Assembly: GCA_964510095.1 (NCBI GenBank)
Contig: CAZEAE010000001.1
Span: 232,551 to 296,550, forward strand
From: an uncultured Elusimicrobia bacterium
Lineage (GTDB): Bacteria; Elusimicrobiota; Elusimicrobia; UBA1565; UBA9628
DNA length: 64,000 nucleotides
Direction of reading: 5' to 3'
Position numbers and translations under genes: made by a program. Numbering within the stretch: the stretch's first letter is position 1; every line of letters starts with the position of its first letter. This document shows, in pieces, positions 6,819 to 29,582 of the stretch. The notes below the pieces were generated by a model. It was given only the letters and a program-made list of their open reading frames with translations, was not told the origin of the DNA and did no database searches.

Positions 6819-8255
6819 CTATCGCTTGATCTTGCGCTCGGTCTGCTCGATGAGCTGGCGCGTCCTCAAAGACGGGCTCACCTCGAAGGCTTTCTTGAAG
6901 AATTTAAGCGCGTAAGGCGCGTCGCCCTCGGCCAAAAGGCACTGGCCCAGGCCGACGTAAGCGTCGGCCACGTTCAGGTCGCTGAGCCCGAGTGAGCCCG
7001 CCAGCTTCAGGCCTTCCGTGTAGAAGCCTTTCGCCTTGCGCACGTCGCGCTCGGCAAGCGCGATGGTTCCCTGGCGCTCGTAATACAGCACGCGCCGGCG
7101 GTCTTCGGGCGCCAGCATCGCCTCGGCCAGCTCCAGCTCCGCGCGCGCGTCCGCGAACTGCTTCGCGTCGATCAGGCGCCGGGCCTTGGCGAAATGGCCC
7201 TCGGCGGTCTCTTCACCCTTGACCGGCTTGGCCTCCTTGGGCACATAAGCCTCCGTCCTCGTCCCCCAATCCACCTTCGGGGGAGGCTCGCGCCGAGGCT
7301 CGACTTTTTCCGGGATCGGCGCGTCTTCCTCGGGCGAAGGCTCATGGCCATCGTCGTGGCCGCCCCAGCGGAACGTGACGCTGGCGCGATGCGTCAGCCC
7401 CAGGTCCCCGTAGGGAGCGAAGGCGTAGTCGATCGAGAAAGACCGCCAGCCCCAGCCCACGCCGCCGGTGATGCCGATATCGGTGTCATTGGCCCCATTG
7501 AAGCCCAGACGCATCGTCATGGGCTTGAGCAGGACGACTTCCACGCCCGCATGCGCCTTCAAGCGGTCGGTGCGCCCCTTGGTCAGGTCGACGGCCACCG
7601 TCGCGCTGTCGAAGGCGTACGCCGCGCCGACCCGGCCGCTCAACGGCAGCTTCTCCTTGTCCCGGATGAAGCGCACGTCAGGCCCCACGTTCTGGATCGC
7701 CGCGCCCAGGGTGAAGCGCGGCGCCGGCGGCACCGTAAGCATCACGCCCGCGTCGCCGGCGAAGGCCGAGGCTTTCACGTTGTCGTTGGTCTCCTGGATG
7801 AACTTCCCGGCCACGCCCAGGCTGAGCGCTCCGAAGAACGTATGGCCATAACCCGCCGCCACGGCCAGGTCGTCGACACGGAACTTGCCCAGCGCGCCGT
7901 CCTTGGAGGCGTAGGTCGTCCGGGGGATGTTGCCGAAGCTCAGGTAGTTGAGGTTGAGCCCCAGGCCCTGCCTCAACGCCAGCCCCATGTACTCGTGGTT
8001 GATGCCCTCCACGTAGGAGTTATGCATCATGGTGACCTCATGCCGGGTGACCCGGCCCAAGCCGGCCGGGTTGTAGAGCAGCGCGTTGGCGTCCGTCGCC
8101 AAGGCCGTGTAGGCGCCGCCCAAGCCGACCGCCCGGGCGTTGCCGTCCAGGAACAGGAAGTCGAAGGGCTCGGCCCCGGCCGAGGCCGCGCCGTGAGCCC
8201 AGCCGGCGGAGCCGGCTGCCCACAGACCGAGCCAAAGGGCCAGTGTCTTCTTCAT
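6819..8255 (-). CDS. Outer-membrane beta-barrel of the FadL/TodX/PorV superfamily, fused to a C-terminal TPR domain
   Basis: A signal peptide is followed by the motif GLGGAYTALATDANALLYNPAGLG, which matches the FadL/PorV N-terminal signature G.G.A...A.DA....NPA.L. The barrel ends in an aromatic residue (FRW). The last ~140 aa hold TPR-like repeats. The ATG overlaps the stop codon of the giant gene (ATGA). Confidence 0.65.
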   Translation of the reverse strand: MKKTLALWLGLWAAGSAGWAHGAASAGAEPFDFLFLDGNARAVGLGGAYTALATDANALLYNPAGLGRVTRHEVTMMHNSYVEGINHEYMGLALRQGLGLNLNYLSFGNIPRTTYASKDGALGKFRVDDLAVAAGYGHTFFGALSLGVAGKFIQETNDNVKASAFAGDAGVMLTVPPAPRFTLGAAIQNVGPDVRFIRDKEKLPLSGRVGAAYAFDSATVAVDLTKGRTDRLKAHAGVEVVLLKPMTMRLGFNGANDTDIGITGGVGWGWRSFSIDYAFAPYGDLGLTHRASVTFRWGGHDDGHEPSPEEDAPIPEKVEPRREPPPKVDWGTRTEAYVPKEAKPVKGEETAEGHFAKARRLIDAKQFADARAELELAEAMLAPEDRRRVLYYERQGTIALAERDVRKAKGFYTEGLKLAGSLGLSDLNVADAYVGLGQCLLAEGDAPYALKFFKKAFEVSPSLRTRQLIEQTERKIKR

Positions 8256-11200
8256 CGGATGATCGAAAGCCTCTTGATGATGCTCTTCTGCCCGGGCGAG
8301 GCGATCACGGCGAAATAGCCGCCCGTGGCCAATTCCCGCCCATCCTCGTTGCGCGCGTTCCACTGCAGCCGGCCGCCGCTGTTGGCCGAGCTGAACTGGG
8401 CGGCCAGCTTCCCGCTGACCGTGAAGACCTTGATCGTGACGGCCGCCGGCAGGTTGTCGAAGACGATGCCCGAGTTCACGTTGCCCGGCGAGAAGGGACG
8501 GCCCTCATCGGGGTTGACGCCGTTGGGCTTGAAGGGCACCGGATAGACGCGCACGGTGTCCAGGTTGGCGGCGCCGGCCAGCGGGAAGGCGGCGAAGAAG
8601 CTGAAGTGGCGCGTCGCCCCGTAGACCGTGTGGTTGACCAGGTCGATCGTCGTCGTCAGGTCGGCCGTCCACTGGTTGGTCACGGTATCGAAGCTGTAGA
8701 GCTTAAGATCCTGAGCGCGCAGCGAGGTGCCGTCCAAGATGCCGTCGTCGTTGGCGTCGAGGTAGGTGAAGGTCAGGGTGGCCGAATTGCCGCCGGAGAG
8801 CAGCGTCTGGCCGTTGCCCAAGGTGATGCTCATCGAGATGCCGACGTCCTGCGTGCCCTCCGGGGCCGCGGCCGGCAGGACCGGGGAGTTGACGACCGAG
8901 ACCGTCGTCGAGGAGCCGCTCAAAGAGCCCGCCGGCAGGTCGATCTTCGTGACCAAGGAGCCGACGCCGGCTCCCGTGATCGCTTGCGGCGCACCGTTGT
9001 TGAGCACCTCCTCGCGCGTGATCAAGCTTCCCACCAGGCGCTCGCGCACGTCCCACCCCGCGGGGTCGACGACGACGGTCACCACCCCCGGCGTCGTATC
9101 GGAGGAATCAGAGATGTCGGCAGCCACCGCGCGCAGGTCATAGCTGGTGGCCGTCAAGCCGGTGACGTCCCAGTGCAGGAACCAAGGGGCCGACAGGTCG
9201 CCGTTGGTCTGCGTCGGCCCGGCCGGCACGACCGGGAGCCAGGCCGTGTCGCTGGATGCCTTGTATTGGAAAAGCACGCTCTTGGTCTGCGCATCCGTGC
9301 CGCTGAGCAGCTGCGCCGACACCGTGACGCGGTCGCCGGCGATGCGCTTTCCTGAGACGGGGGACTTGATCTGGGCCCGCACCGCCGACACCGACGCCGT
9401 CGATGATGCCGAGGCGTAGACGCCGGAGGTTTCTTCCACGCCGCAACGGTGCGCCGCCCGCAATGCGAAGAGATAGGTGGGGCTAGAGACCAGCACGCCG
9501 GTCGTATATGAGGTCTCAGTGGAGGTGAAGACCGCCGCCGGCGTGACGAAGTCGACCGCGCCCGTGCCCGCGTCGTAATACAGCTTATAGGCGGTGATGC
9601 CTTCCGTAGGTGAAGCCGTCCATGACAGGGAGATGCGGTTGCCGGTCAGCGCGTTGGCCGCCAAGCCGCTGGGCGCCGAAGGCGTCGAGGCCAGGGTCAC
9701 GAAGGAGACCGTGCCGTCGAAAGCGGTGGCCACCGCGTCTCCATTGCGGTTGCGCACGCGCAGGTAATACGTCGTGCAGCCCAAGAGGCCCGTGTCGGCG
9801 TAGGCGACCACCGAGCTCAAAGACACCAAGGAGAAGGCGGCATTGTCGGTGGAATGCTGGACCTCGGCCAGCGTGTCCGCGGGGTTGGTGTTGAGGCTCC
9901 AGGAGATCGTCGCGCTGGTGCCCTGGACCAGGCTGATGACGCTGCCCGTAGGCGGCGCGGCTAGGGTATAAGCCGTCGCGGCCGCAGACAGCGGCCCTTG
10001 CCCGCTGACGTTGATGCCCGCGACGACCAAGCCGTAGGCGGTGTTGGTGGCCAGGCCCAGGTGCGAGAACGCCGCCGCCGCCGGATTGCCGATGATCGAC
10101 GCCGTGTTCGAAGCGGGGAAGACGTAGTAGCCGACGGCATCGGCCGCCGCGCCCCAAGTCCAAGAGATCGACGAGACGCCCAGGGCCGCGCCGACGGGCA
10201 CGCCCGGCTGGCCGGGGGCCGCCGGCTCCGTCCGGGTGCTGACGGTCGCGTCGAAGGTCGTGACGCCGCCGTTGTGGCCGAGCGTGCGCGCTTTGAAGTA
10301 ATAGGTGGTCGACGGCGACAGCCCCGCAGCCTCGGCGTCGGTCACGGAGACCAGCGTCTTGACGGGCGACGCGAACGCGGCGGAGACGTCGCGCCAGAGC
10401 TCGTAGACCGTGCCGGGGTCGGGGTTGCCCTGCGGCAGCCAGTCGAGCGAGACGGTCGAAGACGTCACGCTCAGGACCTCCGTCGCCGACGGAGAGAAGG
10501 CGGGGCTAGCCGCCGAGCCCAGATCCTTCACGGTGCTGGCGTTGGCCCCGCTGCGGGCCCGGACGCGGAAATAATAAGTCGTGTTGGCCAGCAGGTCGGC
10601 TCCGGCTCCGCCCGCGCCGAAGACCACTGAGAGGTTCAGCGTCGACGAGCTGAAGTTCACGGAGGCGAAAGCGTCGCTGGAAAGGTCGGCCTCGTAGCCG
10701 GTGCCCGGCGGGTTGCCGCCATCGGTCCACGAGACGGTGACGCTGGCAAAATCGACGGCGACCAGGCTGGGCGCGCCGGCGCCGGGCTCGGCGAGCAGCG
10801 TCGTCGTGGAAGGCAGCGTCGTCAATGATGTGAGCCGGCCGCCGTGGCCCAGGGCCCGGACCTGGAAGTAGTAGGTGGTGTTGGCGCTCAGGCCGGCGAA
10901 GGCCGCCGAGACGCCGTAGGTGCCGCTCGAGGCGTTCAAGGTCGAGAACTCGTCGGTGGAGACCCGCGCCTCGTAAAGCGTGCCCGAAGCGTTGCCATTG
11001 GCAGTCCAGTTCGCGGTGACCGCCGCCGGGCCGACGAAGGTCGGCGCCAAGGCCGCGGGCTCGGCCGGCAAGGTGGCAGTGGCGACGACGGCCACGAACG
11101 CCGTGGGCATCGAGGCGGCGTTGAAGGCCTGCACCCGCAAATAGTAAGTGGCGTTGGACTGCAGGGCGAAGAAGGTGGCTGAAGTCAGGAGCGTATTGCT

Positions 11201-14200
11201 GGAGGCGTTGACCGTGGTGAAGGCGTCGGTCGATATCTGGGCCAGATAGGGCGTCGCGGCCGGATTACCGCCCGCGCCCCAGGACAGCGCGGCCGAGGAC
11301 AACTCCACCGCGCTCAAGAAAGGCGCCGCCGGCGTGACGGCCAGGGTCGGCGCGGCGGCGGCTTGCGCGAACGGGCTCGACCCGCCCCAGCCCAGCGCCT
11401 GGACGTGCAGGTAATAGGTCGTGTTAGGGGCCAACGCCTGGAACGTGGCGGAAAGGGAGAGCGTCTGGCTGGAGAGATTCAGGGTCGTGAAGCCGTCCGT
11501 AGACAGCTGGGCCAAGTAGACCGTGCCGGCGGGGTTGCCGTCGGCCGACCAATCCAGCGTCATCGAAGACAGCGCTATCGCGCTCAGCGCCGGCGCGGCC
11601 GGCGAAGCGGGCAAGGTGAAGGCCGGCGCCGCCGCGATGAAGACGGTAGGAAGCTCGTTGCTGTTGAGGGCGCGCACCCGCAGGTAATAGGTGGTGTTGG
11701 GCACCAGCGCCTGGAAGGTGGCCGAGACGTTGAGCGTCTGGCTGGTGATGTTGAGGGTCGTGAAGGCGTCGGTGGACAGCTGGGCTTGATAGCGCGTGCC
11801 CGCCGGATCGCCCCCGGAGCCCCAGGTCAGGCTCATCGACGAGACGCTGGGGCCGGCGGCGGGCGCCGCCGGAGGAGCGGCCAGCGTGGACGTCGAGCCC
11901 AGCGCTACGTTGGCGCTGACATTGGAAGGCCCCACCGTGCGGACCTGGAAGAAATACGTGGTGTTGGGCGACAGCGCGCTCCCGGCGCCTCCGGAGCCGA
12001 AGAGGGTAGAGAGGCTCAGCGTCAGCGAGCTGAAGTTCACCGTGGCGAAGGCGTCGGTGGAGAGCTCGGCGGCGTAGAAGGCTCCCGGGCCGTTGCCGCC
12101 GCTGGTCCACTGCACGGCGGCGCTGGCGGTCTCGACGGCCAAGAACGAACCCGCGGTCAAGCCCGGCGGCAGGAGCAGCGTGGTGGTCGAAGGCAGCGTA
12201 GCGAAGCCCGTGACCTGGCCGCCATGCCCAAAAGCGCGCACCCGGACGTAGTAGGTCGTATTGGATAGCAGCCCTGCGAAGCCGGCCGCGGCATTGAAAG
12301 TCGCGCTCGACTCATTGAGCGTGGCGAAGGTGTCGGTGGAAAGCTCGGCCTCGTAGCGGGTCGTCAGCGGCGCGTTGCCGTTGGCCGACCAGTTCGCCTG
12401 GAAGGCCGCCGCGGCCACGGCGGAGGGCTGGGCTGAGACCGGCAGCGCCGGCGGCGTCGCGGTGGCCGGCCCCACGGCGAAGCCGGTGGCGGCAAACGCA
12501 TGAGAAAGCGCCTGCACGCGCAGGTAATAAGTGGCGTTGGACAGCAGGCCGAAGAAGGTGGCCGAGGTCAGCAGGGTAGAGCTCGAAGCGCTGAGCGTGG
12601 AGAAGTCGTCGGTGGAGAGCTGTACCGCAAAGCGCGTGCCCGCCGGGTTGCCGTTGGCGCTCCAAGAGAGCGCGGCCGAGGACAGCTCGACGGCCGTCAG
12701 TGAAGCCCCGGCCGGCGTCGCCGCCAGCGTCGGCGCGGCGGCGGCGGAAGCAAACGGGCTCAGCGCGCCGGCCCAGCCGATGGCTTGGACGCGCAGATAA
12801 TAAGTGGTGTTGGGCACCAGGGCCTGGAACGTGGCGGAGAGGTTCAGCGTCTGGCTGGAGGTATTGAGGGTCGTGAAGGCGTCGGTAGACAGCTGCGCCA
12901 GATACACCGTCCCGGCCGGATCGGCGTTGGCGAGCCAATCGACGGTCATCGAGGACAGGTTGATCGCCGCTAAAGAGGGGCTCGGCGGCGCCGGCAGCGT
13001 GACGGTCGTCATCGCCGCCGCGTAGCTCGAAGGCACGCCGTTGTTGTTGACGGCCCGCGCGCGCAGATAGTAAGTCGTGTTGGGGACCAGCGCCTGGAAC
13101 GTGGCCGACAAGCTCAGCGTCTGGCTGGAGGCATTGAGCGTGACGAAGACGTCGGTGGAAAGCTCCGCCTGATAGACCGTGCCGGCGCCGTTGCCGGCCG
13201 AGGTCCAGGTCAGGCTCATCGACGAGACGCTCGGCAGCGCCGCGGAGGCGGCGGGGACCGCCGCCAGCGTCGACGTCGACCCCAAGGGGATGTCGGCGCT
13301 GCTGTTGCCTCCGCCCGTGGCGCGCACCTGGAATTGATACGTGGTATTGGGAGACAGCGCCGGGCCGGCCCCGCCCGCGCCGTAGAGGACCGTGAGGTTG
13401 AGCGTCGACGAGCTGAAGTTCAGCGTGGCGAAGCCGTCGGTGGACACCTGGGCCACGTAGACCGTCGTAGGCCCGTTGCCGCCGCTGTTCCACTGCACCG
13501 CGACGCTGGACTGCTCGACGAGGAAGAAGGAACTCCCCGCCGGCACCGGCGGCAGCAGCAGGGTCATGGTCGCGGGCAGGACCGTGAAGGCGGAAAGCCG
13601 GCCGTCATGGCCCGAGGCGCGGACCCGGACGTAGTAGGTCGTGTTGGACAACAGCCCGCCGAAGCCGGCCGAGACGTTGAGCGTCGCGCTCGACTCCCGG
13701 AGCGTGGAGAAGGCGTCGGTGGATATCTGGGCCTCGTAGAGGGTCGTCAGCGGCGCGTTGCCGTTGGGCGACCAGTCGGCCTGCAAGGAGTTGGCCGTGA
13801 TCGCCGAGGGCGGCGCCGACGCCGGTTCGGCGGCCGAGGTCGCCGTGGCCGCCGCGACGGCGAAGGCCGTCTGCGCCCCCGCATGCGACCAGGCGGCCAC
13901 CCGCAAGTAATGCGTGGCGTTGGAGAGCAGCCCGAAGAAGGTCGCCGAGGTCAAGAGCGTCCGGCTGGAGGAGTTGACCGTGACGAAGGCGTCGGTGGAG
14001 TCTTGCGCCAGATATTCGGTGCCCGCGGGATTGCCGCCGGCCGCCCAGCTCAGCGCGGCGGAAGTCACCCAGACGCCGCTGACCGCAGGCGAGACCGGCA
14101 GGTCAGGGAGCGTCACGGAAGGACTCGCCGCCGCGAACCCGCCCGGCCCGTAATGACCGGAGGAGCGCACGCGAAGATAGTAGGTCGTGTTGGGCGTCAG

Positions 14201-23200: not shown

Positions 23201-26044
23201 GTTCAACACCAGGCTGGTGACCTGCATCGCCGAGCCCAAGGAGTCGAAGACCAGCGTCGTCGAGGGCTGCGTGGCGATGAAGATGCCGACCGGGACCTCC
23301 GGCAGCGTGAAGGTCGAAGACGTCTGCACGTAGAGGTTGGCGAGCGCGGTCGCGTCGCCCTCGCCGGTGGTGTAGAAGCGCTGAGGCGAGGTGCCCGCGA
23401 TCACGGTCGTGCTGAGAGAGGAGTCCAGGTAGCCGTTGGCCAGGACGATGTTCTGGTGGAAATACTGGTAATGACTTCCCGCCGTGTGGCTCCCGGACAA
23501 GACGGTGAAGTTGCCGCGCACCTCCAGGTCGGACAGCAGGGTCTCCATGACGCCCGCGGCCGCGAGCTTGTTGATGACCAAGTGGTTGAACCGGGCCGGC
23601 CCGGCGGTCAGGCGTTTGATCTTCGACACCCCCCCGCCGGTGAAGACGACCGTGCTGCCCGCCACCGTGCTCGTCGTCCTCATGTCGCCCACGAGCCAGT
23701 CGCCCGTGACCGCCAGCGCGCGCCCGTTGAGGTCGAGCATGGCGGAGGAGCCGGCGTCGAAGGTCGCGCCGCTGGAGATCGACAGGTCGACCGTGAGCGT
23801 GACGGTGCTGGCGTAGCCGCCCGTGATGCTCATGCTTGCCAGCGTCACCGCCAGGTCCCAGGCGCAGGGCGACGTCGGCGTGGTGTTGCCGAAGACGACG
23901 GAATCGCCCGCGGCGGGCGCCCCCGACGGGACCCAGTTCGCGGAAGCCGATGCCGCCGAGGAGCCCCCGCCGTAGCTCCAGGTCTTCAGCGCGCCGCCGC
24001 CCCCGCCGATGAACGTCCAGTTCGTGTTGCCGCCGCCGTCGACGCTGTTGCTCGCGGTGACGGCGACGCCCAAGCTGGAGTCGATATCGCGCGCGTAGAC
24101 GAAGGCGAGCGTGGGCGCCGAGCCCAAGGTGAGCTGGGCCGCCACGCCGTCGGAGCCGCCCCGCAGCTGGACGCGCGACGAGGCGGCCAGGCCGCTGACG
24201 GTCATGCTGGCGATTTCCGTCACGCTTCCGCTCTCGAAGAGCACCGTCGCGTTGGGCTGCGTGGCGACGAAGACCTGGATATCCGACTGCACCAGGCTGA
24301 TCACGGCCGGGGTCTGGATGAACAAGGCCCCGATGTTGGTGACGCTGCCCACCGCGGCCCCCACGGCGGGGCCCAAGGACTGAGGCTGGCTGCCGGTGAA
24401 GACCAGCGTGCTCACCGAGACGTCGACGGCGCCGTCGCCGACGAAGAACCCGCCGTGCAAGCGCTGGGTATGGGCGCCGACCAGGTAAGCGCCGGTCGAA
24501 GCGGTGAAGGTGCCGAAGGTCTCGATGTCCGACAGCAGCATCAGCGTCGCGCCGCTGGCCTTGGCGGCGACCAGACTGTTGAAAAGAGCCGGCCCGCCCG
24601 TGGTGCGCAGGATATGAGAGGTGCCGGCGCCGTAGAAGGTCACGCTGCTGCCGGCCACCGTGCTGGTCGTCTTGACGCCGCCTGCGGCCCAGTCTCCCTG
24701 GACCGACAGGTTGCGCCCGTTGAGGTCGAGCTTGGCCGAGGAGCCCGCGTCGAGCAAGACGCCGCTGCTGACGGTCAGGTCGACCGTCAGCGTGACCGTG
24801 CTGGCGTAAGCGTTGGTGACGCTCATCGACGTCACGACGACGGAAAGATCCCATGTGCAGGGCGCCGTCGGCGTCGTGCTGCCGAAGACGACGTAGTCTC
24901 CCGCGCCGGGAGGCCCGCCGGCAGCCCAATTGCCGGCGTTGGAAGCCAACGCGGAGCCGCCTCCCCAGCTCCAGAACCGCGTCGCGCGAGGGTCGCCGCC
25001 GGAGAAGGTCCAGCCCGTGTTGCCGCCGCCGTCGACGCTGCTGGTGGCGGTGATGGCCGTCCCCTGAGAGACGTCGATGTCGCGGACGAACGCGAAGCGC
25101 ACCGTGGGAGCCGTGGTGATGACCTGCGCCGCCTGGCCGGCGACCAGGCTCTGGATCTGGATGCGCGAGGTCGCGGCCAGACCGCTGATCGTCATGCTGG
25201 TGATGCTGATAGGGTCGATCGGCGTCTGCAGGATCAAGGTCGAGCTGGGCTGGGTGGCCACAAGGACGGCCACCTGCACGCCCGGCAGCGTGATCGCGGC
25301 CGGGGCCTGGATGAAGATCGCGCCGATGAAGGTCGCGCCGCCCTCGCCATTGCTGGCCAGCGCCTGCGGCCGGTCGCCCACGAAGACCAGCGTGCTGACC
25401 GACACGTCCAGGAAGCCTTCGGTCAGCAGGAGGCCGCCGTGGAGATGCTGGCTATGCTTGCCGGCCACATGGTTTCCGGTCAAGATGGTGAAGAGGCCGA
25501 AGACCTCTATGTCCGACAGCAGCTGCTCGGTCTGACCGGCCGTCTTGTCGATGACGAGATAGTTGAACCGGGCGACCCCGCCGCCGGTCCGCGTTATGTT
25601 CGAGGTCCCCGTCCCGTAGAACGTCACCGTGCTGCCGGCCACCGTGCTCGTCGTCTTCATGCTGCCTACGGTCCAATCGCCCTGGACGGAGAGGTTGTGA
25701 CCGTTGAGGTCGAGCATGGCCGAGGAACCGCCGCCGAGCCAGACGCCGCTGCTGACGGTCAGGTCGACGGTGAGGGTCACGGTGCTGGCATAGGACCCCG
25801 ACACGCTCATGGAAGCGATGGTCAGCGCCAGGTCCCAGGTGCAGGGTGAAGTCGGGGTGGTGTTGCCGAAGAGGACGCCGTCACCATCCGTGGGAGCGAC
25901 GCCGCCGATCCAGTTGGCGGGGTTGGAAGCCAGGGCCGTGCCGCCGGCGTAGCTCCAGGTCAGGTCGGCCGCCTGCGCGGCCGGGCTCACCATGAGGGCG
26001 AGGAGGAATGCTCGTGCCAACGACTTATAAGAGGAAGTGCTCAT
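8252..26044 (-). CDS. Giant (5,930-aa) secreted modular adhesin-like protein. It contains N-terminal repeats, parallel beta-helix (PbH1/pectate-lyase-like) modules, a long fibronectin-III-like domain array, an Ig-like region and a T9SS-type C-terminal sorting domain (Por_Secre_tail / FlgD-Ig-like)
   Basis: A single uninterrupted 17.8-kb ORF with an N-terminal signal peptide (AAQA-AD). Repeated NTV...GS..NT beta-helix rungs are present. There are about 27 units of ~93 aa with a conserved W, Y..Q.STD.F and TTYY.RV (FN3-like). The C-terminal ~95 aa (VRVYPVPFKP...GGYFAVI...KSIIKRLSIIR) fit the T9SS CTD consensus. Confidence 0.85.
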   Translation of the reverse strand: MSTSSYKSLARAFLLALMVSPAAQAADLTWSYAGGTALASNPANWIGGVAPTDGDGVLFGNTTPTSPCTWDLALTIASMSVSGSYASTVTLTVDLTVSSGVWLGGGSSAMLDLNGHNLSVQGDWTVGSMKTTSTVAGSTVTFYGTGTSNITRTGGGVARFNYLVIDKTAGQTEQLLSDIEVFGLFTILTGNHVAGKHSQHLHGGLLLTEGFLDVSVSTLVFVGDRPQALASNGEGGATFIGAIFIQAPAAITLPGVQVAVLVATQPSSTLILQTPIDPISITSMTISGLAATSRIQIQSLVAGQAAQVITTAPTVRFAFVRDIDVSQGTAITATSSVDGGGNTGWTFSGGDPRATRFWSWGGGSALASNAGNWAAGGPPGAGDYVVFGSTTPTAPCTWDLSVVVTSMSVTNAYASTVTLTVDLTVSSGVLLDAGSSAKLDLNGRNLSVQGDWAAGGVKTTSTVAGSSVTFYGAGTSHILRTTGGPALFNSLVAAKASGATLMLLSDIETFGTFTASTGAYLVGAHTQRLHGGFFVGDGAVDVSVSTLVFTGSQPQSLGPAVGAAVGSVTNIGALFIQTPAVISLVQSDIQVFVATQPNATVLFESGSVTEIASMTVSGLAASSRVQLRGGSDGVAAQLTLGSAPTLAFVYARDIDSSLGVAVTASNSVDGGGNTNWTFIGGGGGALKTWSYGGGSSAASASANWVPSGAPAAGDSVVFGNTTPTSPCAWDLAVTLASMSITGGYASTVTLTVDLSISSGATFDAGSSAMLDLNGRALAVTGDWLVGDMRTTSTVAGSTVVFTGGGVSKIKRLTAGPARFNHLVINKLAAAGVMETLLSDLEVRGNFTVLSGSHTAGSHYQYFHQNIVLANGYLDSSLSTTVIAGTSPQRFYTTGEGDATALANLYVQTSSTFTLPEVPVGIFIATQPSTTLVFDSLGSAMQVTSLVLNGQAAGTRQTIRSSSDGTRGKMTAVFSDVSFTAVKDIDSSGGGAISAASSLDRGNNLNWTFPVFGVISASSWTAIGATSVTVHWDSSFPPGLSYTANLSSAPWPNVFAGNQSSTTLNLFATFGGAVSLLPNTSYYLQVSTSAGGPFTVLGDSGTLSKPVLAAAVYAVNGASVTANWFALPSSPPDASSKTAEGYLLQASTSPTYTGLIFSSSTPNAALSTLTVSGLSGLTTYYLRVGGLNWRGAPNFVSISSVVTPLGLPLGCAVAAEVAKTGYAFTTIASALASFGGSLAVDSCVVIRDTQTYSEQVSVSGLAMNDHRLSFVTADPSQAGPAVINPPAGSTAAFYLANASVTITNMAIITTNTVAYGVYASSAYVTLARVSVDSGGKIWTAGVAVSSWSSVADSSITVQSADGLRLNASLGSTILYSTASAAGSGFSALFLSTADNNTVANAYFLSQAGPAVRLVAGSDYNAISLSTMVSNAASAATTNSVLYLSHSDSNTVTGSYVQNLSGALGIYLDVGSDYNTIAYSTGVTNSSAVDVIGAQWSSGTAITGSFLRNMGAGWALGLDEGANYTSVSASTFIAGAYGLWAWGGNHHTTVSDVYIQVAQEVGLSFNASPSNTVTNARIYASSAALDVQGCSGNSFSQIYAYSANGHGAYLALNTNTVISMSTMASNGTGYGLYVQNSSSDTILGSYIQGSTAVYVSGSTGTVIGGSVLAVTIAAGDGLVLSSTSVNLSLSSSTVSGGAQGRALFLADGNKGRIVLSTNVFQGGRYAVYAATQQAGTQLWIASNTVLPTLSAAYDTYGIYLDGLATGATIQNNGIYYRAAGSMGAFTAYGLHARSVAGLVVDHNRISQPDVLSAGGFEAVSLAGAVNSTLKFNDLYGAASVPLTNAYVLRLHSGSTGVAVKNNVLSSSFSVTGASATIAVSGDSQTGFSADYNDFYSSNSANSALWGLLSYDLLAAWRAASSQDANSAAVLPRWKDPGAGVEDFHPLSQSGRWNPATGSFAADAQTSQTIDRGDPLLGAGLEANPNGGRANQGSYGLTAEASQSYLDLPAGCGAGYNVKQDGSKDYTTIQAAVTALSFLGTDSCVVVRDTQTYNEQVTVQNLANNGFRLTIMADPGFISSAPVINPPTASTAAFLVINDSVTLQHLTVITTNTVAYGVWSSSAYVTLSSVNVDSGGKIWTAGVAVSSWSSVSYGSITVQSADGLRLNYAIRTTVQYSTVAVSGDDFHALYLTASDSNTVTGSYFQHSAAGYGAFLTNGSDYNVISQSSLACNHASALALLVIASDNNTVTGSVISNLQGQGVGMNTGADYNTFSQSVLSANSATAAAFFLSDCDHNTVVDSTIRNTAGDGAILVTGSDYNAIIRSTMTSAAVAADLYPLYIGESSSNTIVDSYIQGSTAAVIHGSTATVIGGSVLIATHTAGSALWMSAGSLDLSLSTSTLVGGAQGAGLFVDEGNSGRLLISTNSFPAAARYAVYAATQQPGTQLWISSNTVLPSLSASRDTFGIYLNGLVSGATIQNNGIFYRSAGSMGAFTSYGLYAQSAAGLLIDRNRFGAPGMITAGSHEAVKFSGTTNSSFKSNDVHVAGAGLTNAYGLSVLSGSTGVKVKDNVFLSSTAVIGSSATISVSADSQPGFVSDYNSYYSSNAYSTGFWGAAAYALTSAWTAGSGQDANSLDGQHPYWADPSAGVEDYHPRSPRGRYDPGTGGFVVDGVLARSIDAGDPAEAVGLEPSPNGSRLNAGSYGGTAEASKAAPAPTGQIAGAVDLSSITLTFGAVASDGYNAQAATDPGFASVISSATANAASTQLSPQGLALNTTYYVRVGALYGSAVVYPLGAAVSTPTLAAVPAEGSEAVVFTSSIIVSWAANGNPAGTLYSAQLSTDAFVTINESSRTMGSAAAFLNLLPNTTYQARVQAINHAGLATDFGASLATATWAGDLQGVSLYGVFATSVTVNWVPLALSPPDASSKTSSGYVLVASTAADFSGTQFSSATSNVALSTLSLTGLSNATYYLRLGALNWNGSANYSFVAATHTASSLPPGCLTGFNVKQDGSMDHVTLQGALNAMPPGLTGDACLVIRDALTYSEQVTIQGFSNNGYRLRIMADPTFVSSAPVFNPPAGSTAAFLVFNDSVTLQQISIITTNTVAYGVWSSSAYVALSSVSVDGRAGIWSAGVRVSSGSSIERSSITVLAGHGLVITGPWSVVSYATSAVVGAGDAALVLDGASSSTITNGRFYGNFGGAQLKNGAHDNVISLSTMTGNGGLSISVGSYSNIITQSYAAGFVSGGAFIGGNYNTLSQSVITGNSSIDVNGAFNTLTGLSIPSPGGYGLVLSGGADYNTVTLSTISVLRLTGGSYNTVSRSLLSAPVITGGSIGNLVTLSTITAGLQFLEGSSNTVSSCYIEGSTAVIVAGATGTVVSSNFLAATSALGSGLWLRSGSVNLSMSSNTVSGGAQGAGIALEAGAGRLILSTNTIRTGAQYGIRVAAQGAGAQVWITSNTVLPTLSTSLDTYGIHLNGLITGATIQDNGVYYRTALAIPGVTAYGLYALGSSGLVIDHNRFNEPGKITSGSHEAVSLWATTNSSLLFNDLHATGANFNNAVLLSVRSASTGVQVKGNVFLSSFSVSGASATIEVSADSQSGFVSDYNDFFSSAVLNSGTWGASSYDFLAAWRSGTGRDLNSLAAQPLWNDASGGVEDFHPRSQRGRWDPAAAGFVVDGVTALTIDAADPAAAAGLEASPNGARANLGSYGQTLEASKSAPTAAPVLLGVSGSSVTLSWALAASDGYSAEVSSVADFSSGIVSSVTTNGSSTQLSPQSLLPNTTYTLRVGTLYGAVYNYAASGATATWAHPPVAAVFSVGLSSHGLSWGRNGNPEGTLYAVEQSTDAFLTLNASSWTLNAGATFFGLVSNKDYSLRVRALGHGGTATAFLTPSSSFTLTADPASTSTAVNLSSAVLTWSSPSNDVGTPYDAQVSTDDFATVNLTSATLSQSATFTALTPNTTYYLRVRSSGHYGPGGFAAASPSVTLPDLPVSPAVSGVWVTSAALSWAAGGNPAGTEYLAQDSTDAFVTVNSSSRTLLTSATFFGLLSNATHYLRVAAWSHAGAQTAFAVAAATATSAAEPASAPPSAITANSLQADWSPNGNAPLTTLYEAQISTDAFSTLRESSATLNVSAGFGGLLSNTTYYVRVRASGHDGRLSAFTVLPATMTLLLPPVPAGSSFFLVEQSSVAVQWNSGGNGPTTVYVAQVSTDGFATLNFSSSTLNLTVLYGAGGAGPALSPNTTYQFQVRATGGGNSSADIPLGSTSTLAAVPAASAALPSVSSMSLTWTSAGNGAGTVYQAELSTDVFVTLNASSQTLSLSATFQALVPNTTYYLRARAVNNNGVPSSYAAAMTTVTLPAPPSPSLAAINLSSMTVDWLANADPAGTVYLAQLSTDAFTTLNTSSQTLNLSATFQALVPNTTYYLRVQAIGWAGALSPFASAAAAPTLAATPAGASLTAVELSSAALSWSANGNPAGTRFAVQLSTDDFSTLSASSSTLLTSATFFGLLSNATYYLRVQALSHAFAATGFAVGPATATPPALPVSAQPSAVAAAAFQANWSANGNAPLTTRYEAELSTDTFATLNESSATFNAAAGFAGLLSNTTYYVRVRAFGHGGQVTGFATLPSTTTLLLPPGLTAGSFLAVETASAAVQWTSGGNGPGAFYAAELSTDAFATVNFSSLTLSLSTLFGSGGAGSALSPNTTYFFQVRTVGPSNVSANVALGSTSTLAAPPAAPAAGPSVSSMSLTWGSGGDPAGTRYQAQLSTDAFTTLNITSQTLNVSATFQALVPNTTYYLRVRALNSNELPTVFIAAAPAFTLPASPAAPALSAIALSSMTLDWSADGNPAGTVYLAQLSTDGFTTLNLSSQTLSLSATFQALAPNTTYYLHVQALGWGGSSPFAQAAAAPTLAVTPAAPFLSAVELSSAALSWGAGGNPAATPYLAQISTDAFTTVNASSNTLLTSATFFALQSNATYYLRVQAFNAASMPTAFVAVVATATLPAEPAALAPTFVGPAAVTANWTANGNASGTLYEARVSTDEFSTLNASSGTYGVSAAFAGLSANTTYYFQVRALGHGGRLTSLTTLPSTTTLLAEPGAGAPSLVAVDFASVTVSWTDGGNPPGTGYEADLSSDAFASVNFSSSTLNLSVVFGAGGAGADLLANTTYYFRVRARSGANASTVKDLGSAASPAFSPSATEVLSVTSSTVSLDWLPQGNPDPGTVYELWRDVSAAFASPVKTLVSVTDAEAAGLSPSTTYYFKARTLGHNGGVTTFDATVSTRTEPAAPGQPGVPVGAALGVSSISWTWGAAADAVGYYVFPASNTASIIGNPAAAAFSHLGLATNTAYGLVVAGINVSGQGPLSAAATAYTLAAPPTGSVISLVQGTSATISWSLNTNPADTLAEVQHSTDNAAFSLVSLSSVVAYADTGLLGCTTYYLRVRNRNGDAVATAFDGTVSFVTLASTPSAPSGLAANALTGNRISLSWTASPTEGITAYKLYYDAGTGAVDFVTPAAVFTSTETSYTTGVLVSSPTYLFALRAAHRCGVEETSGVYASASSTASVSAVRAQIKSPVSGKRIAGDRVTVSAQLLSGTDAQTKSVLFQYKASSDTAWLPVVPAGPTQTNGDLSAPWFLHWDVTGLTATSYDLRAVAADISDSSDTTPGVVTVVVDPAGWDVRERLVGSLITREEVLNNGAPQAITGAGVGSLVTKIDLPAGSLSGSSTTVSVVNSPVLPAAAPEGTQDVGISMSITLGNGQTLLSGGNSATLTFTYLDANDDGILDGTSLRAQDLKLYSFDTVTNQWTADLTTTIDLVNHTVYGATRHFSFFAAFPLAGAANLDTVRVYPVPFKPNGVNPDEGRPFSPGNVNSGIVFDNLPAAVTIKVFTVSGKLAAQFSSANSGGRLQWNARNEDGRELATGGYFAVIASPGQKSIIKRLSIIR
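8255..8560 (-). other. C-terminal sorting domain of the giant protein (T9SS CTD-like / FlgD Ig-like fold)
   Basis: The sequence is YP.PF.P......F.......V.I.V.T.SG......L.......G.Y...W....E.G...A.G.YF. It ends in a basic stretch, as Por_Secre_tail domains do. Confidence 0.6.
10100..14300. repeat. Higher-order tandem repeat of about 1.38 kb, about 3 copies, each encoding five FN3-like units, inside the giant gene. Boundaries are approximate
   Basis: Near-identical DNA blocks recur at about 10.14, 11.52, 12.88 and 14.26 kb. At the protein level a five-domain block (e.g. GTVYLAQLSTDAFTTLN...TTYYLRVQAIGW) is reiterated. Confidence 0.7.
14800..23000. repeat. Tandem repeat of about 2.9 kb, 3 copies, each encoding a ~960-aa module (FN3-like pair plus PbH1 parallel beta-helix). 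Boundaries are approximate
   Basis: Highly similar DNA occurs at about 16.73, 19.69 and 22.09 kb (gacgccgtaggccacggtgttggtcgtgatga...). The protein modules begin GC..G(F/Y)NVKQDGS and contain VVIRDTQTY..QV and VDSGGKIWTAGVAVSSWSSV. Confidence 0.7.
23000..26000. repeat. Tandem repeat of about 1.0 kb, 3 copies (~330-aa N-terminal modules of the giant protein). Boundaries are approximate
   Basis: Similar DNA at about 23.80, 24.79 and 25.78 kb (gtgctggcgta...ctcatcg...caggtcccaggtgcaggg...). The protein repeats begin TWSYGGGS.ASNA.NW..GG.P.AGD.V.FGNTTPTSPC.WDL. Confidence 0.65.
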
Positions 26045-26071
26045 TGCCAGGAAAACACCGCGGCACTCAGA

Positions 26072-26100
26072 AGTGTAGGCGGGGAATGAAGAACGGTCAA
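26072..26100 (-). promoter_or_regulatory. Candidate sigma70-type promoter for the giant gene (TTGACC-N17-TACACT)
   Basis: On the minus strand, TTGACC occupies 26100..26095 and TACACT 26077..26072, with a 17-nt spacer. The -10 box lies 27 nt upstream of the ATG at 26044. Confidence 0.35.
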
Positions 26101-26146
26101 TACCGTTCCGGTTACAGGTTATTTCTGGGCCTTGACAGGCCCGGGC

Positions 26147-26887
26147 TCAGTCTTGGAGCCGGAAGATGATGTTCTGGGGGAGCTTGACCGGCACCGGCCC
26201 GCCGCGGCCGACGGCCGGCGAGAAGCGCATGAGCGCGGCGACCTTGCGCGCGGCGGCGTCGAAAGCCGCTCCGGCGGAGGCCGTGACGTCGACGGGGTCG
26301 ACCTTGCCGTCGACGCCTATGTGGAGCGCGACGACCACCGTGCCCTCGCGCCCGGCGCGCCGCTCGCTCTCGGGATAGAAGCGCCGCAGATTAGCCAAGA
26401 CCTCGTCGCGGTTGAGCAGCTTCGGCAGCTGCAGAAGCGCGGCTCCGCCGTTGCCGGTGCCGCCGGGCACGCCGTCATCGGAGCCCGCCCCCGAGCCGCC
26501 GACCTTGGCCGCCGTGCCTTTTCCATCCACCGCGCCTCCCGAGGTGGCCGCGGGCGCCTCAGGAGCCTCGATGACCTTGGTCTGCGGGCCGGGCAGGACC
26601 CAGTCCTTCGGCGGCTCGACCGGCTTGACCACCGGGGCGGCGACCGGGCTGTCCACGGGTCGCGCCGGAGCCTTGGCTTCGGGCGCCAGCTTTTTGGGGG
26701 CGCCAAGCTTAGCCGGGCCGGTGCCCAGAAAAGAGGAGGTCAGGTCGATCTCCGCCGACGGCGACGGCGCCCATGAAGGCAGGCTCAGCCCGTGGGCGGC
26801 CAGCCAGAGGCCGCAGTGGAACAAGACGGAGGCGGCTAAAGCGCGTTGAAAGAGGCCCTCTTCCGCCGTCAGCTGCCGCAGCTTCAC
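26147..26887 (-). CDS. tonB: TonB-family energy transducer: N-terminal TM helix, Pro-rich linker and TonB C-terminal domain
   Basis: TM helix ASVLFHCGLWLAA; PEAKAP/KPVEPP proline-rich region; the C-terminal block REGTVVVALHIGVDGKV...F.PA...G.PV fits TonB_C. ATGA overlap with exbD. Confidence 0.65.
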   Translation of the reverse strand: MKLRQLTAEEGLFQRALAASVLFHCGLWLAAHGLSLPSWAPSPSAEIDLTSSFLGTGPAKLGAPKKLAPEAKAPARPVDSPVAAPVVKPVEPPKDWVLPGPQTKVIEAPEAPAATSGGAVDGKGTAAKVGGSGAGSDDGVPGGTGNGGAALLQLPKLLNRDEVLANLRRFYPESERRAGREGTVVVALHIGVDGKVDPVDVTASAGAAFDAAARKVAALMRFSPAVGRGGPVPVKLPQNIIFRLQD

Positions 26888-27276
26888 TTGACCTCCAGGC
26901 CGATCTTGCGCACCCCCGCTCCGCGCACGACGTCGAGCAGGGCTACGACCTCGCCGTACGGCAGGGTCTTGTCCGCCGACAGCGAGACATGCAGGTCGGG
27001 ACGGGCCTTGGCGAGCCCGGACAAGGTCTTGGCCAGCTCGGCGGCCGTCGTCAGCTTTCCGCCCAAGGCGACCTGCCGCTGAGCGTCGAAGAGTATCTGC
27101 AGCGTCTCGGTGGCGGTGCGTTCGTGGTGGGCGGCCTTGGGCACCTCGACCTTGAGGGCTCGCTTGGCGATCATGGGCGCGGTGGCCATGAAGATGATGA
27201 GCACGACGAGGATGATGTCGACCAGCGGCGTGACGTTGATGGCGGTGATCGCCTCGTCGCCGCTTCCGGACTGCAC
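26884..27276 (-). CDS. exbD: Biopolymer transport protein ExbD/TolR
   Basis: The motif INVTPLVDIILVVLIIFM is the ExbD signature. The start is assigned to a GTG (VQSGSG...) that overlaps the exbB stop by 1 nt; the longer listed ORF is an upstream-extension artefact. Confidence 0.6.
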   Translation of the reverse strand: MQSGSGDEAITAINVTPLVDIILVVLIIFMATAPMIAKRALKVEVPKAAHHERTATETLQILFDAQRQVALGGKLTTAAELAKTLSGLAKARPDLHVSLSADKTLPYGEVVALLDVVRGAGVRKIGLEVK

Positions 27277-27911
27277 TACTGCCTCCGGCCCGCCGGCGCC
27301 GAGCGGATGTGGGCCAAGAGCAGCCGGCCCAGCAGCTCGGTGCCCATCAGCAGGTCCTTGGCCTTCTTCTGGAAGTAGTTGAAGCCTACGACGCAGGGGA
27401 TGGCCACGATCAGGCCGACGGCAGTCGCGATCAGCGCCTCGGAGAGCCCCTGCATGACGACCTCCGGACCCGAGCCGCTCTCCCCCAGGTCGTGGAAAGC
27501 CTTGATGACGCCCAGCACGGTGCCGAAAAGGCCGATGAAAGGGGCGTTGCTGCCCAGGGTGCCCAAGACCAGCAGGCGCTGCTCGACGCGCCGCCTTTCG
27601 GCCAGGGTGGCCGCGACCATATGGTCCTCGACGCCGGCGGGGCCGTGCTTGGCCTGCTTGAGGCCGGCCAAGAGCACGCGCGCGGCGGCGCCGGGATGGG
27701 CGCGGATGGTCTTCTCCACGGCGGGAAGGTCGCGGTCGTCCCAATCCCCGATGAGCGCGGAGTTGAGCGTCTCGAGGGCGCGCAGCTCTCGGCTGAGCAA
27801 GAGCCCGCGCTCGATGATGACGGCGACCGCCGCGATCGAGCAGAGCAAGAGGCCGTAGATGACCCAATCGCCGCCCGTCAGCGCCAACGACCTTAAGAAG
27901 AGCAGATCCAT
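27276..27911 (-). CDS. exbB: MotA/TolQ/ExbB proton-channel family protein
   Basis: 211 aa with three TM segments. The motif GTLGSNAPFIGLFGTVLGVIKAF is a canonical ExbB/TolQ signature. Confidence 0.75.
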   Translation of the reverse strand: MDLLFLRSLALTGGDWVIYGLLLCSIAAVAVIIERGLLLSRELRALETLNSALIGDWDDRDLPAVEKTIRAHPGAAARVLLAGLKQAKHGPAGVEDHMVAATLAERRRVEQRLLVLGTLGSNAPFIGLFGTVLGVIKAFHDLGESGSGPEVVMQGLSEALIATAVGLIVAIPCVVGFNYFQKKAKDLLMGTELLGRLLLAHIRSAPAGRRQ

Positions 27912-27915
27912 GTCG

Positions 27916-28737
27916 TCACCGGTCCTTGAAGCGGTCGAGGTTGAGCAAGGCCGAGACGAGCTCGGCCTTGACGGAAGCGTTGGGCTCGAAGGTCAACTGC
28001 TGCATCAGCTTGCGGTATTCCTCGGCGCCGCCGAGCTCTCCCAGGTAGCGCACGGCCATGGCCCGGAGGAACCAGTCGGTGTGCCGGGCCATGCGCAGCA
28101 AGATCTCGCGGCCGGTCACATCGCCCATGCGCCAAAGCCCGGCGGCCGCGTAGATCTGCATGACCGGAGAGCGGTCGTCGCGCGCGGCGTTGGCCACCTG
28201 GAACTGCACGGCCGGGCTGCCGAGGATGAGCAGGGACTCCAAGGCCCCCAGGCGCACGGTCACGTTTTGATCGATGAGGGCTCCTTGAAAGAGGCCCAGG
28301 TAGCGCAGGTCGCGGGTGTAGGCCAAAGCGACCATGGCGGCGGCGCGGGTCTGCACGTTGCTGCCCTGGCGCACCGTGCGCTCGAGCTCGCTGGTCAGCT
28401 CGAGGTCGGTGACGCCGGCCAAGCCCTCGGTCAATAAAAAGCCCAATTCGGTATAGCGCGTCTTGAGCTGATAGCCCTTCACCGTCGAGATCTTCCCCAG
28501 GTTGCCGATGGAGGAATCGAGTAGGGCCTGGGAATCCGGACGCGCGTCCTGGCGCTGGCGCAGGAGGCGCAGCAGATGCATGTTGATCTGAGGGTCGATG
28601 ACGGCGCTCTTAGGGACCCTGTAGCGCGGCGCCGAGATCTCGAGGTCCTCGAGCCGGTAGGTGGTCAGGTCGACGGCCAGGTTCTGCGCGAGCGCCGCCG
28701 GCGCCAAGACCAGCAGCAGCGCGGTCAGCCCCCTCAC
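27916..28737 (-). CDS. Secreted HEAT-repeat (PBS-lyase HEAT-like) protein
   Basis: A signal peptide ending AALAQ; repeated V(R/Q)..A...LG......A...L..LL.D motifs. Confidence 0.5.
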   Translation of the reverse strand: MRGLTALLLVLAPAALAQNLAVDLTTYRLEDLEISAPRYRVPKSAVIDPQINMHLLRLLRQRQDARPDSQALLDSSIGNLGKISTVKGYQLKTRYTELGFLLTEGLAGVTDLELTSELERTVRQGSNVQTRAAAMVALAYTRDLRYLGLFQGALIDQNVTVRLGALESLLILGSPAVQFQVANAARDDRSPVMQIYAAAGLWRMGDVTGREILLRMARHTDWFLRAMAVRYLGELGGAEEYRKLMQQLTFEPNASVKAELVSALLNLDRFKDR

Positions 28738-29582
28738 TTGGGCACCGTCTTAGGGAAGAGCTTAAGGGCGGCGATGCAGTACTCGGCCACGACGAAGTCG
28801 TTGCTGACCTCGCGGCCGATGCGGGAGGTCATGAGGCGATAATCCTCTGCGGCGCCGTAATCGCCGAGGTAGCGGGCGGCCATGGCGCGCACCAGCCAGC
28901 TGGGGTCGTCCAAAAAGGCGCGCAGGCGCAGCAGGCCGGAGGGGTCTTCCATGCGGGCCAAGCCCGAGGCGGCATAGACGCGCAGGATGGGCTCGTACTC
29001 GCGCTCGGTGGCCATCGACAAGAGCGACATCGACTTCTCCGGATGCCCCCAGACGATGAGCGCCTCGAGGGCGGCGAAGCGCACCGCGGGGTCCAGGTGG
29101 ACCAAGGCCTCCCGGAAGATGTCGAAATGCGCGATATCGTGAAGGCCGGCCAGCGCGACCAGGGCGTTGGCGCGCGTCTCGCCGTTGTTGTCCCAGCGAG
29201 CCAGTTCGATGAGCTTCTGACGGAAGACGGGGTCGGCATTGCGCGAGGAGGCCTCGGACAATGGGACACCGATATTGAGGAATCGGTTCCTCAGCTGGAA
29301 GCCGATGGGCGAGCCCACGCTCAATATCTCGCCTAGGGGCGTGCCTTGCACGTTGGCCAGGTCGACGCGGGCCTTGTCCTTGCGCTCGATGAGGTCGACC
29401 AAGGTGTTGGTGATCTGGGCGTCGGGCTTGACGGCCGGCGCCGGGGGCGGCGCGCCGGCGGCGACGCCGCCCGCGGGGGCCGCGGGACCGCCGGGGATGA
29501 CGGGGGCTTCCACGCAGCCGCCCAGCGCCAGGCCGAGCGCGGCCAAGAAGATCCACCGTCGGGAAGCGTTCATCCTCTTCAT
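28734..29582 (-). CDS. HEAT-repeat lipoprotein
   Basis: Lipobox LALGGC; HEAT-like repeats (DPAVRFAALEALIVWGHPE, DPSWLVRAMAARYLGDYGA); ATGA overlap with the downstream HEAT gene. Confidence 0.5.
   Translation of the reverse strand: MKRMNASRRWIFLAALGLALGGCVEAPVIPGGPAAPAGGVAAGAPPPAPAVKPDAQITNTLVDLIERKDKARVDLANVQGTPLGEILSVGSPIGFQLRNRFLNIGVPLSEASSRNADPVFRQKLIELARWDNNGETRANALVALAGLHDIAHFDIFREALVHLDPAVRFAALEALIVWGHPEKSMSLLSMATEREYEPILRVYAASGLARMEDPSGLLRLRAFLDDPSWLVRAMAARYLGDYGAAEDYRLMTSRIGREVSNDFVVAEYCIAALKLFPKTVPK

Follow-up and report, generated by a model that had tools for sequence, protein, structure and literature searches.

Motors related to ExbBD and TolQR move or secrete surface adhesins, both in the Agl-Glt gliding machinery of Myxococcus and, as GldLM/PorLM, in the secretion system of type IX (T9SS). 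In the attachment complex of the Porphyromonas gingivalis T9SS, PorQ holds PorZ and PorV holds PorU (PMC5562754). Cargos whose C-terminal domain (CTD) is of type B are encoded next to cognate PorP/SprF-like barrels that serve as their shuttles or anchors, as in SprB-SprF (PMC9143113, PMC12618676), and the Tol-Pal system comprises TolQRA, TolB, Pal and CpoB, with TolA acting on TolB (PMC12204202). Here we analyse a string of seven genes on the minus strand of a 64,000-nt stretch of Elusimicrobiota DNA (hereafter referred to as the window). In the order of transcription, they encode two HEAT-repeat proteins (HEAT1 and HEAT2), ExbB-, ExbD- and TonB-like proteins, a giant secreted protein with a T9SS-like CTD and an outer-membrane barrel of the PorV/PorQ family with a TPR tail (Table 1). 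An initial annotation had read the string as a single device, driven by the proton-motive force, that exports, anchors or moves this one fibre. Our comparisons lead us to a different reading: the string probably places side by side two envelope modules that are specific to Elusimicrobia and conserved independently of each other, HEAT1-HEAT2-ExbB-ExbD-TonB (module A) and giant-barrel (module B). Neither module was found described in the literature that we searched (Elusimicrobia with TonB, T9SS or PorV; HEAT with ExbB).

We compared the window proteins by tblastn with 80 ExbB loci, taking one genome per species. Module A recurred, with the order and orientation of its five genes unchanged, in about 21 Elusimicrobia genomes at the species level (L001-L020 and L025), with 36-73% identity of the HEAT proteins across these HEAT-type loci; HEAT1 orthologues (36-70% identity) lay directly upstream of HEAT2 in all of these approximately 21 loci. 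The RlmN and GAF genes upstream were syntenic in several HEAT-type loci as well. On the other side, TonB was the final gene of the conserved block, and none of the relatives' genes downstream of it matched the window below position 26147. What follows TonB in the relatives is varied: ArsP permease, PFOR and citrate synthase; an ABC ATPase; an HDAC-like protein; a DnaJ-HEAT protein; a U32 peptidase; and, in five loci, a convergent pair of RNase D and P5CR genes. A cargo gene directly after TonB was found in none of the 16 related HEAT-type loci with visible downstream sequence, and no PorV-TPR or CTD homologue occurred within 10 kb at any of the 80 ExbB loci. As judged from this synteny, HEAT-HEAT-ExbB-ExbD-TonB is a block conserved on its own across the phylum.

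Module B behaved similarly. Homologues of the barrel-TPR protein number more than 330, and every one whose source is named is labelled Elusimicrobia. In all seven cassettes that we read individually (at six places, one of which carries two in tandem), a cargo gene encoding 1629 to >3433 amino acids precedes the barrel gene with a 4-nt overlap, and the upstream sequence shown contains no ExbB, ExbD, TonB or HEAT-module gene. Scanning metagenomes with the barrel family alignment yielded 26 more bona fide cassettes, so that about 32 were sampled in total. Of the 11 cassettes in which the cargo is complete and the upstream sequence extends over 2 kb or more, 0 have Ton or HEAT genes there, and Ton genes were absent downstream in 18 of 20 cassettes. 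The giant and the barrel, by these homology searches, are a separately conserved, multicopy Elusimicrobia cassette. The initial annotation had described the barrel as the giant's own partner, and this part of it is borne out, the overlapping cargo-barrel pair recurring in every cassette examined. It had also allowed that the exbB-exbD-tonB trio might turn out to be widely conserved beside different genes in relatives, with no co-occurrence with CTD giants. With the two modules separately conserved, this is largely what the comparison shows, and the idea of a composite export device largely fails.

The domain calls and gene arrangement on which that idea had been built were themselves accurate. 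ORF analysis and Pfam/NCBIfam scans recovered all seven co-directional genes, and reading the sequence confirmed each of the quoted stop/start overlaps: HEAT1/HEAT2 (GTGA, 4 nt, at 28734), ExbB/ExbD (TAGTG, 1 nt, at 27276), ExbD/TonB (GTGA, 4 nt, at 26884) and giant/barrel (ATGA, 4 nt, at 8252), with a gap of 4 nt between HEAT2 and ExbB. ExbD starts with the GTG at 27276, and the GTA codon at 27279 is no start. The overlap at 29579 (ATGA, 4 nt) is also real, but it joins HEAT1 to an eighth, unrelated gene, encoding a Memo-AMMECR1 fusion, and does not lie within the string. The MgtC/RlmN and RlmN/GAF pairs of the window likewise overlap by 1-4 nt. Since unrelated neighbours also overlap in this compact genome, the overlaps are generic and provide no evidence of a common function. 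The sole sizeable interval in the string is the 102-nt gap between TonB and the giant, that is, at the boundary between the two modules. A single sigma-70-like site was found there, against 0.0 expected from 50 shuffles, and this promoter-like site preceding the giant supports the juxtaposition.

Table 1. Positions of the genes, domains and sites of the window (numbered from the first nucleotide of the 64,000-nt stretch).
Feature	Positions	Strand	Remarks
HEAT1, HEAT-repeat lipoprotein, module A	28734-29582	-	282 aa; Pfam HEAT_2 62.8 bits; lipobox LALGGC
HEAT2, HEAT-repeat protein with signal peptide, module A	27916-28737	-	273 aa; Pfam HEAT_2 63.1 bits
Ton-box-like linear motif in HEAT2	28624-28653	-	residues 29-38, LEDLEISAPR; family consensus ELEPLVVTAPR
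ExbB/TolQ-like proton channel, module A	27276-27911	-	211 aa; Pfam MotA_ExbB 111.5 bits
ExbD/TolR-like protein, module A	26884-27276	-	130 aa from GTG at 27276; Pfam ExbD 99.3 bits
TonB-family transducer, module A	26147-26887	-	246 aa; Pfam TonB_C 56.1 bits
Sigma-70-like promoter site in TonB-giant gap	26072-26100	-	TTGACC-17-TACACT; consensus match only
Giant secreted cargo, module B	8252-26044	-	5930 aa; Pfam Beta_helix, NosD, fn3
Conserved C-terminal module of giant, ~620 aa	8255-10144	-	common to cassette cargos with otherwise different architectures
CTD of giant, last ~100 aa, T9SS type-A-like	8255-8554	-	aligns with 7 other cargos
PorV/PorQ-family barrel with TPR tail, module B	6819-8255	-	478 aa; NF033709 PorV_fam 146.1 bits
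Memo-AMMECR1 fusion	29579-31051	-	490 aa; Memo and AMMECR1 domains
Phage-integrase/HTH_17 gene	57524-59110		low-GC region
DUF2779 gene	62014-63513		low-GC region

The barrel matched the whole of the PorV-family model NF033709 with its residues 31-296 (146.1 bits; cut-off 90). Its scores against the equivalog models for PorQ (NF033711, 95.7 bits; cut-off 220) and PorV (NF033710, 51.3 bits; cut-off 250) stay below the cut-offs, so it is a member of the family and an orthologue of neither. The AlphaFold2 (AF2) model, with a mean predicted local distance difference test score (pLDDT) of 87, comprises 14 strands (residues ~28-298), a disordered linker and a 7-helix TPR domain (residues 351-477), which we infer to be periplasmic. 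The top PDB matches in Foldseek were the PorV chains 8gl6_F (E 1.1e-13) and 6h3i_F (E 1.2e-10), both from Flavobacterium T9SS translocon complexes, followed by FadL/TodX. In some relatives the C-terminal domain of the barrel protein is OmpA_C (P0096) or DUF2914 (L104 3367-4941) instead of TPR, and this swapping of the tail fits a role in periplasmic docking.

The cargo of this barrel is equally modular. The giant begins with a Sec-type signal peptide (ending in ...SPAAQA, with ADL following) and continues with three ~330-aa repeats, identified on an internal repeat map and without Pfam matches. Three beta-helix blocks of ~700-800 aa each (Beta_helix/NosD) follow, with fn3 pairs between them, and then ~20 fn3 domains lead to the conserved stalk and the CTD. 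The C-terminal ~620 aa are mostly 43-60% identical over ~600-630 aa to those of other cassette cargos, including L081, L083, L085, L087, L088, L089, L102 and most metagenome cassettes; identities are lower for a few, such as L115 (38%) and L111 (29%). The N-terminal parts of the cargos differ, featuring fn3, Kelch/Big_2, S8 peptidase or beta-helix/NosD domains. On these alignments, the cargos (L081-L119) are modular proteins with a variable head on a constant stalk. We use the label adhesin for the giant tentatively, as a head that binds or cleaves polysaccharide is equally possible.

The last ~100 aa are common to all cargos, and the CTD of the giant aligns over its full length with those of seven others. 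Its best NCBIfam match is the C-terminus of PorZ, at 34.8 bits, within a range of 34.8-44.5 bits across the homologous CTDs. Against TIGR04183 (cut-off 23 bits) the window CTD scored 17.4 bits and the homologous CTDs 20.1-23.2 bits, L085 alone reaching the cut-off; the FlgD_ig match was weak, and CHU_C gave 15.8 bits against a cut-off of 27.

Module B thus resembles PorQ-PorZ in that the window CTD matches the PorZ C-terminus best and the barrel scores higher with PorQ than with PorV. By analogy with PorQ-PorZ and PorV-PorU, a T9SS-type CTD would be retained, with a 14-strand barrel of the PorV/PorQ family as its holder. Unlike the T9SS of P. gingivalis, a member of the Bacteroidota, the pair belongs to an Elusimicrobiota host and is encoded by overlapping, multicopy genes; unlike PorQ and PorV, the window barrel ends in a TPR domain, in place of which some relatives have OmpA_C or DUF2914. 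SprA/Sov, PorK/L/M/N and PorU were found neither among the scanned window proteins nor in the Pfam lists of neighbouring genes. The arrangement of a large adhesin-like cargo gene followed by the gene for a cognate outer-membrane barrel recalls SprB-SprF. As with the type B/SprF pairs, there are several specialised pairs per genome, in which the barrel would determine surface anchorage. Unlike in SprB-SprF, the window barrel is of the PorV/PorQ family and the CTD is type-A-like (TIGR04183/FlgD_ig); the window barrel hit PorV/UPF0164 and not PorP_SprF, and the pair does not classify as type B.

The motor proteins of module A share several features with those of the Ton and Tol-Pal systems. The domains MotA_ExbB, ExbD and TonB_C all exceeded their Pfam cut-offs, ExbD carries the transmembrane Asp (TPLVDIILV), and the TonB protein consists of an N-terminal transmembrane segment with S-x-x-x-H, a Pro-rich linker and the TonB_C domain, scoring 47.5 bits with TIGR01352 (cut-off 27.1). 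The NCBIfam models of TolQ and TolR outscored those of ExbB and ExbD, all four scores being below the respective cut-offs: 113.6 bits for tolQ (cut-off 221) and 78.5 for exbB TIGR02797 (cut-off 206.2) in the case of ExbB, and 91.8 for TolR (cut-off 127.3) and 68.3 for ExbD TIGR02803 (cut-off 152.95) in the case of ExbD. The nearest ExbB relatives, with 45-71% identity, all come from Elusimicrobia metagenome-assembled genomes. Families of the Glt, GldLM and PorLM type were not found among the window proteins scanned, and, unlike Agl-Glt or GldLM, the window motor is tied to the fibre by a non-conserved adjacency alone.

Unlike the Ton and Tol-Pal systems, module A is an operon without a receptor, TolB, Pal or CpoB gene, and its candidate client is a HEAT alpha-solenoid. 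The initial annotation had remarked on the missing receptor, and tblastn with two Elusimicrobia TonB-dependent receptors indeed gave no match in the window and none within 10 kb of any HEAT-type locus. Receptor matches were confined to three non-HEAT Elusimicrobia ExbB loci (L021, L034 and L044), at which a Plug plus TonB_dep_Rec barrel adjoins ExbBD-TonB. TolB, Pal, CpoB and OmpA_C were likewise not found among the scanned neighbours of the HEAT-type block, in the window or in its relatives. Elusimicrobia carry at least three paralogous ExbB-ExbD-TonB systems: the HEAT-linked one, the receptor-linked one and one of the TonB_2 type (PF13103; L102, L104 and L171-L174). A HEAT-type locus (L019) and a receptor-linked locus (L044) share one 3.1-Mb contig.

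The HEAT genes stay next to those of this motor. We compared the window (27916-29582) with L002, L007, L009-L014, L016-L018 and L020. Overall, HEAT1 and HEAT2 constitute one fused ORF of ~545-600 aa in 11 of 19 loci and are split in eight, as they are in the window; in all 19, the HEAT genes adjoin ExbB at a distance of -4 to 117 nt. That they are fused or split and yet always abut ExbB argues that the two work jointly, with each other and with the motor. The lipobox of HEAT1 is confined to the clade of the window, in which HEAT1 and HEAT2 are two genes; the forms of distant lineages, a single fused protein, have a plain signal peptide. HEAT2 has 219 homologues, nearly all labelled Elusimicrobia. 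In its AF2 model, residues 1-47 are devoid of predicted secondary structure, with pLDDT below 50 at residues 1-23 and 26-39, and helical repeats forming an alpha-solenoid start at residue 112. The best PDB matches in a fold search were generic HEAT/alphaRep solenoids, which offered no functional lead.

Just N-terminal of the HEAT2 half, we found a Ton-box-like motif with the pattern [FL]-[EQ]-L-[ED]-P-L-[VI]-[VI]-T-A-P-R. It sits in a disordered stretch (pLDDT <50), or in the inter-domain linker of the fused forms, and is nearly invariant across 20 orthologues, whereas the flanking linker and signal peptide are unconserved. It resembles the Ton boxes of Elusimicrobia receptors (LAPITVTAAPE and LVPITISAAPT) as well as that of E. 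coli BtuB (DTLVVTA). The initial annotation had proposed to look for such a motif near the N-terminus of the barrel or of the giant. The regular expression [PED][LIVM][VTI][VI][TS][AG] matched 0 of 54 barrel proteins and no site in the giant; the motif is in HEAT2 instead. The conserved N-terminus of the barrel, EPFxFLxLD, corresponds to the beginning of the generic PorV family model and is no extension of it. A Ton-box-like motif in HEAT2, together with no receptor nearby, suggests a receptor-independent client of TonB, and the likely client of the module A motor is the periplasmic HEAT protein itself. Such a client would resemble those of the Ton system in that its disordered N-terminal region holds a Ton-box-like strand, and TolB, on which TolA acts, in being a soluble periplasmic protein.

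From the gene content, conservation patterns, folds and motifs described above, we propose that module A is an operon for force transduction of the TonB type, complete in itself and without an adjacent receptor gene. ExbB and ExbD would use the proton-motive force to pull on the HEAT solenoid through TonB; HEAT2, acting together with HEAT1, would offer the Ton-box-like strand of its disordered N-terminal region for binding by TonB, and the action of TonB on the HEAT solenoid would be analogous to that of TolA on TolB. In module B, the giant would be exported by Sec, and its CTD, perhaps with the stalk, would be recognised and bound by the PorV/PorQ-like barrel encoded directly downstream. The barrel would then anchor the fibre on the cell surface, as PorQ does for PorZ and SprF for SprB, with its periplasmic TPR tail docking to a periplasmic partner.

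Several observations weigh against this reading. The motif of the window's own HEAT2, LEDLEISAPR, is the most degenerate of the 20 copies. No terminator-like site was found in the TonB-giant gap, so that co-transcription by read-through is possible. In addition, cassettes do occur beside Ton-type clusters elsewhere. On two divergent metagenomic contigs, L102 (1-5098) and L104 (1664-7224), co-directional genes run cargo-barrel-ExbB-ExbD-TonB_2, with barrel-ExbB gaps of 39 nt and ~490 nt, respectively; the two ExbB proteins share 53% identity, and their identity to the window ExbB is 37-41%. At L009, an S8-peptidase/fn3 cargo-like ORF of at least 1898 aa begins 3.1 kb, or two genes, beyond the HEAT-type TonB and runs off the contig at its C-terminal end. 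The L081 cassette abuts an RNase D-P5CR block that in the close relative L002 is one gene away from TonB; the DNA identity between the two (89-91%) begins exactly at the RNase D stop, and the upstream side of the L081 cargo is off the contig. Under naive random placement, three clusters with two sides each over ~2700 genes would give ~0.07 adjacencies in ~32 cassettes. Two cassette-motor adjacencies were seen, more than this estimate predicts, excluding the window, which had been chosen for its adjacency. However, those of L102 and L104 may go back to one ancestral event; with the window removed, P is ~0.07. We regard the recurring adjacency as suggestive of a link, not decisive.

These adjacencies are an argument for a loose coupling in trans, in which HEAT- or TonB_2-type motors would act through the PorV-TPR barrels to energise the secretion, anchoring or turnover of CTD cargos. 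With a few motors serving many cassettes, the two would then be adjacent only occasionally. The adjacencies appear independent, as they involve two ExbB paralogues and two gene orders (that of the window and that of L102/L104), and the cargo-like gene of L009 near a HEAT-type TonB points in the same direction. Furthermore, both modules are seemingly restricted to Elusimicrobia, the T9SS is driven by an ExbBD-related motor, and the periplasmic TPR tail of the barrel could contact a partner anchored in the inner membrane. Nevertheless, most cassettes are unlinked to Ton genes on either side, as counted above, and so are most motor loci, including 15 of 16 of the HEAT type and 4 of 4 unbiased ones of the TonB_2 type, the four other TonB_2-type loci containing no cassette. 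The lack of a Ton-box-like motif in the 54 barrels and the giant, as well as the possible common origin of the L102 and L104 arrangements once the window is removed for ascertainment bias, also argue against it. Taken together, we consider coupling in trans rather unlikely, though it deserves to be kept in mind.

Another possibility is that module A is an ordinary housekeeping TonB system whose receptors have their genes at other places, or that it represents tolQRA from a split Tol-Pal system, with HEAT proteins that are accessory or unrelated and a motif that is fortuitous. The preference of ExbB and ExbD for the TolQ and TolR models and the shortness of the HEAT2 motif would agree with this, as would the reports that Tol-Pal with a Pro-rich TolA occurs in Elusimicrobia and that receptor genes often lie apart from Ton gene sets (PMC12204202). 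It does not readily account for the HEAT genes, which abut ExbB in all ~21 loci, whether fused or split, and never leave the block, nor for the motif, the most conserved element of a variable, disordered region. Moreover, the phylum has separate receptor-linked and TonB_2-type paralogues, two of the three types occurring on one 3.1-Mb contig, and none of the TolB, Pal and CpoB families was found among the scanned neighbours of HEAT-type loci. We consider a housekeeping role of this kind unlikely.

A more elaborate hypothesis combines the two modules at a distance: Elusimicrobia, from which no T9SS is known, might display giant CTD proteins by means of self-contained cassettes energised in trans by Ton-like motors. 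The HEAT-type operon would be one of these motors, with its HEAT protein as a receptor-independent, Ton-box-bearing adaptor that links TonB to the periplasmic TPR tails of the barrels. We mention it as a speculation with a small chance of being right. Least probable is the proposal of the initial annotation that a single seven-gene operon specifies a machine, driven by the proton-motive force, for this fibre alone: the co-directional, tightly spaced genes, the 102-nt gap without a terminator-like site and the receptor-free window would suit it, but the Ton block lies beside different genes in ~16 relatives, the cassette occurs without Ton genes in ~30 places, a promoter-like site precedes the giant, and overlaps in this genome are not specific to functionally related genes. 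What survives of that annotation are its domain calls, the pairing of the giant with its barrel and a receptor-less Ton set, now tied to the HEAT proteins; the single device dedicated to the fibre does not.

The neighbourhoods of the two modules yielded some further observations. In two distant HEAT-type loci, L010 (~11780-12580, +) and L013 (11764-13542, +), the gene directly after TonB specifies an additional HEAT-repeat protein, one of the two including a DnaJ domain. A long ORF at L009 (11813-12730) proved to be an antisense artefact of an HDAC gene, and several such calls in high-GC sequence were discarded. Convergent giant ORFs of at least 3919 and at least 3680 aa lie right after the TonB_2-type clusters of L171 (10521-16615, -) and L173 (9727-16627, -), respectively; they were considered as cassettes and rejected, as they are without a CTD and mutually unrelated. 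Giant genes appear common in these genomes. No family shared among the uncharacterised ORFs beside TonB or beside the cassettes was found, and a scan of viral contigs for further neighbourhoods returned nothing. The Memo-AMMECR1 gene, located between GAF and HEAT1, was not detected by tblastn in any of the 80 related ExbB loci and, on this comparison, is a lineage-specific insertion into a conserved neighbourhood; the fusion corresponds to the AmmeMemoRadiSam proteins B plus A.

Elsewhere in the window, the GC content drops from ~0.66 to 0.53-0.58 between 56000 and 64000, a region that contains the phage-integrase/HTH_17 and DUF2779 genes and probably represents an integrated element. A cluster of small secreted proteins whose signal peptides are alike is encoded at 549-1091 and 2787-3818 (+), and also at 1744-2771. 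Two of them share a C-terminal region, ...NPMG.P......ILR.AQ...PV.GK....L..(M/I)LA.LE, and represent an uncharacterised paralogous family.

The juxtaposition of two modules in this string carries a caution for the reading of genomes, in that a machine at the level of an operon does not follow from genes being tight, co-directional and overlapping where the genome is compact. As for module A, a HEAT solenoid, if confirmed as a client, would add a third kind to the clients of TonB/TolA, the other two being TonB-dependent receptors and TolB. As for module B, the phylum-wide occurrence of cassettes with PorV/PorQ-like barrels and TPR tails outside the Bacteroidota bears on the evolution of T9SS-type CTDs and PorV-like shuttles, and also on how uncultured Elusimicrobia build their surfaces.

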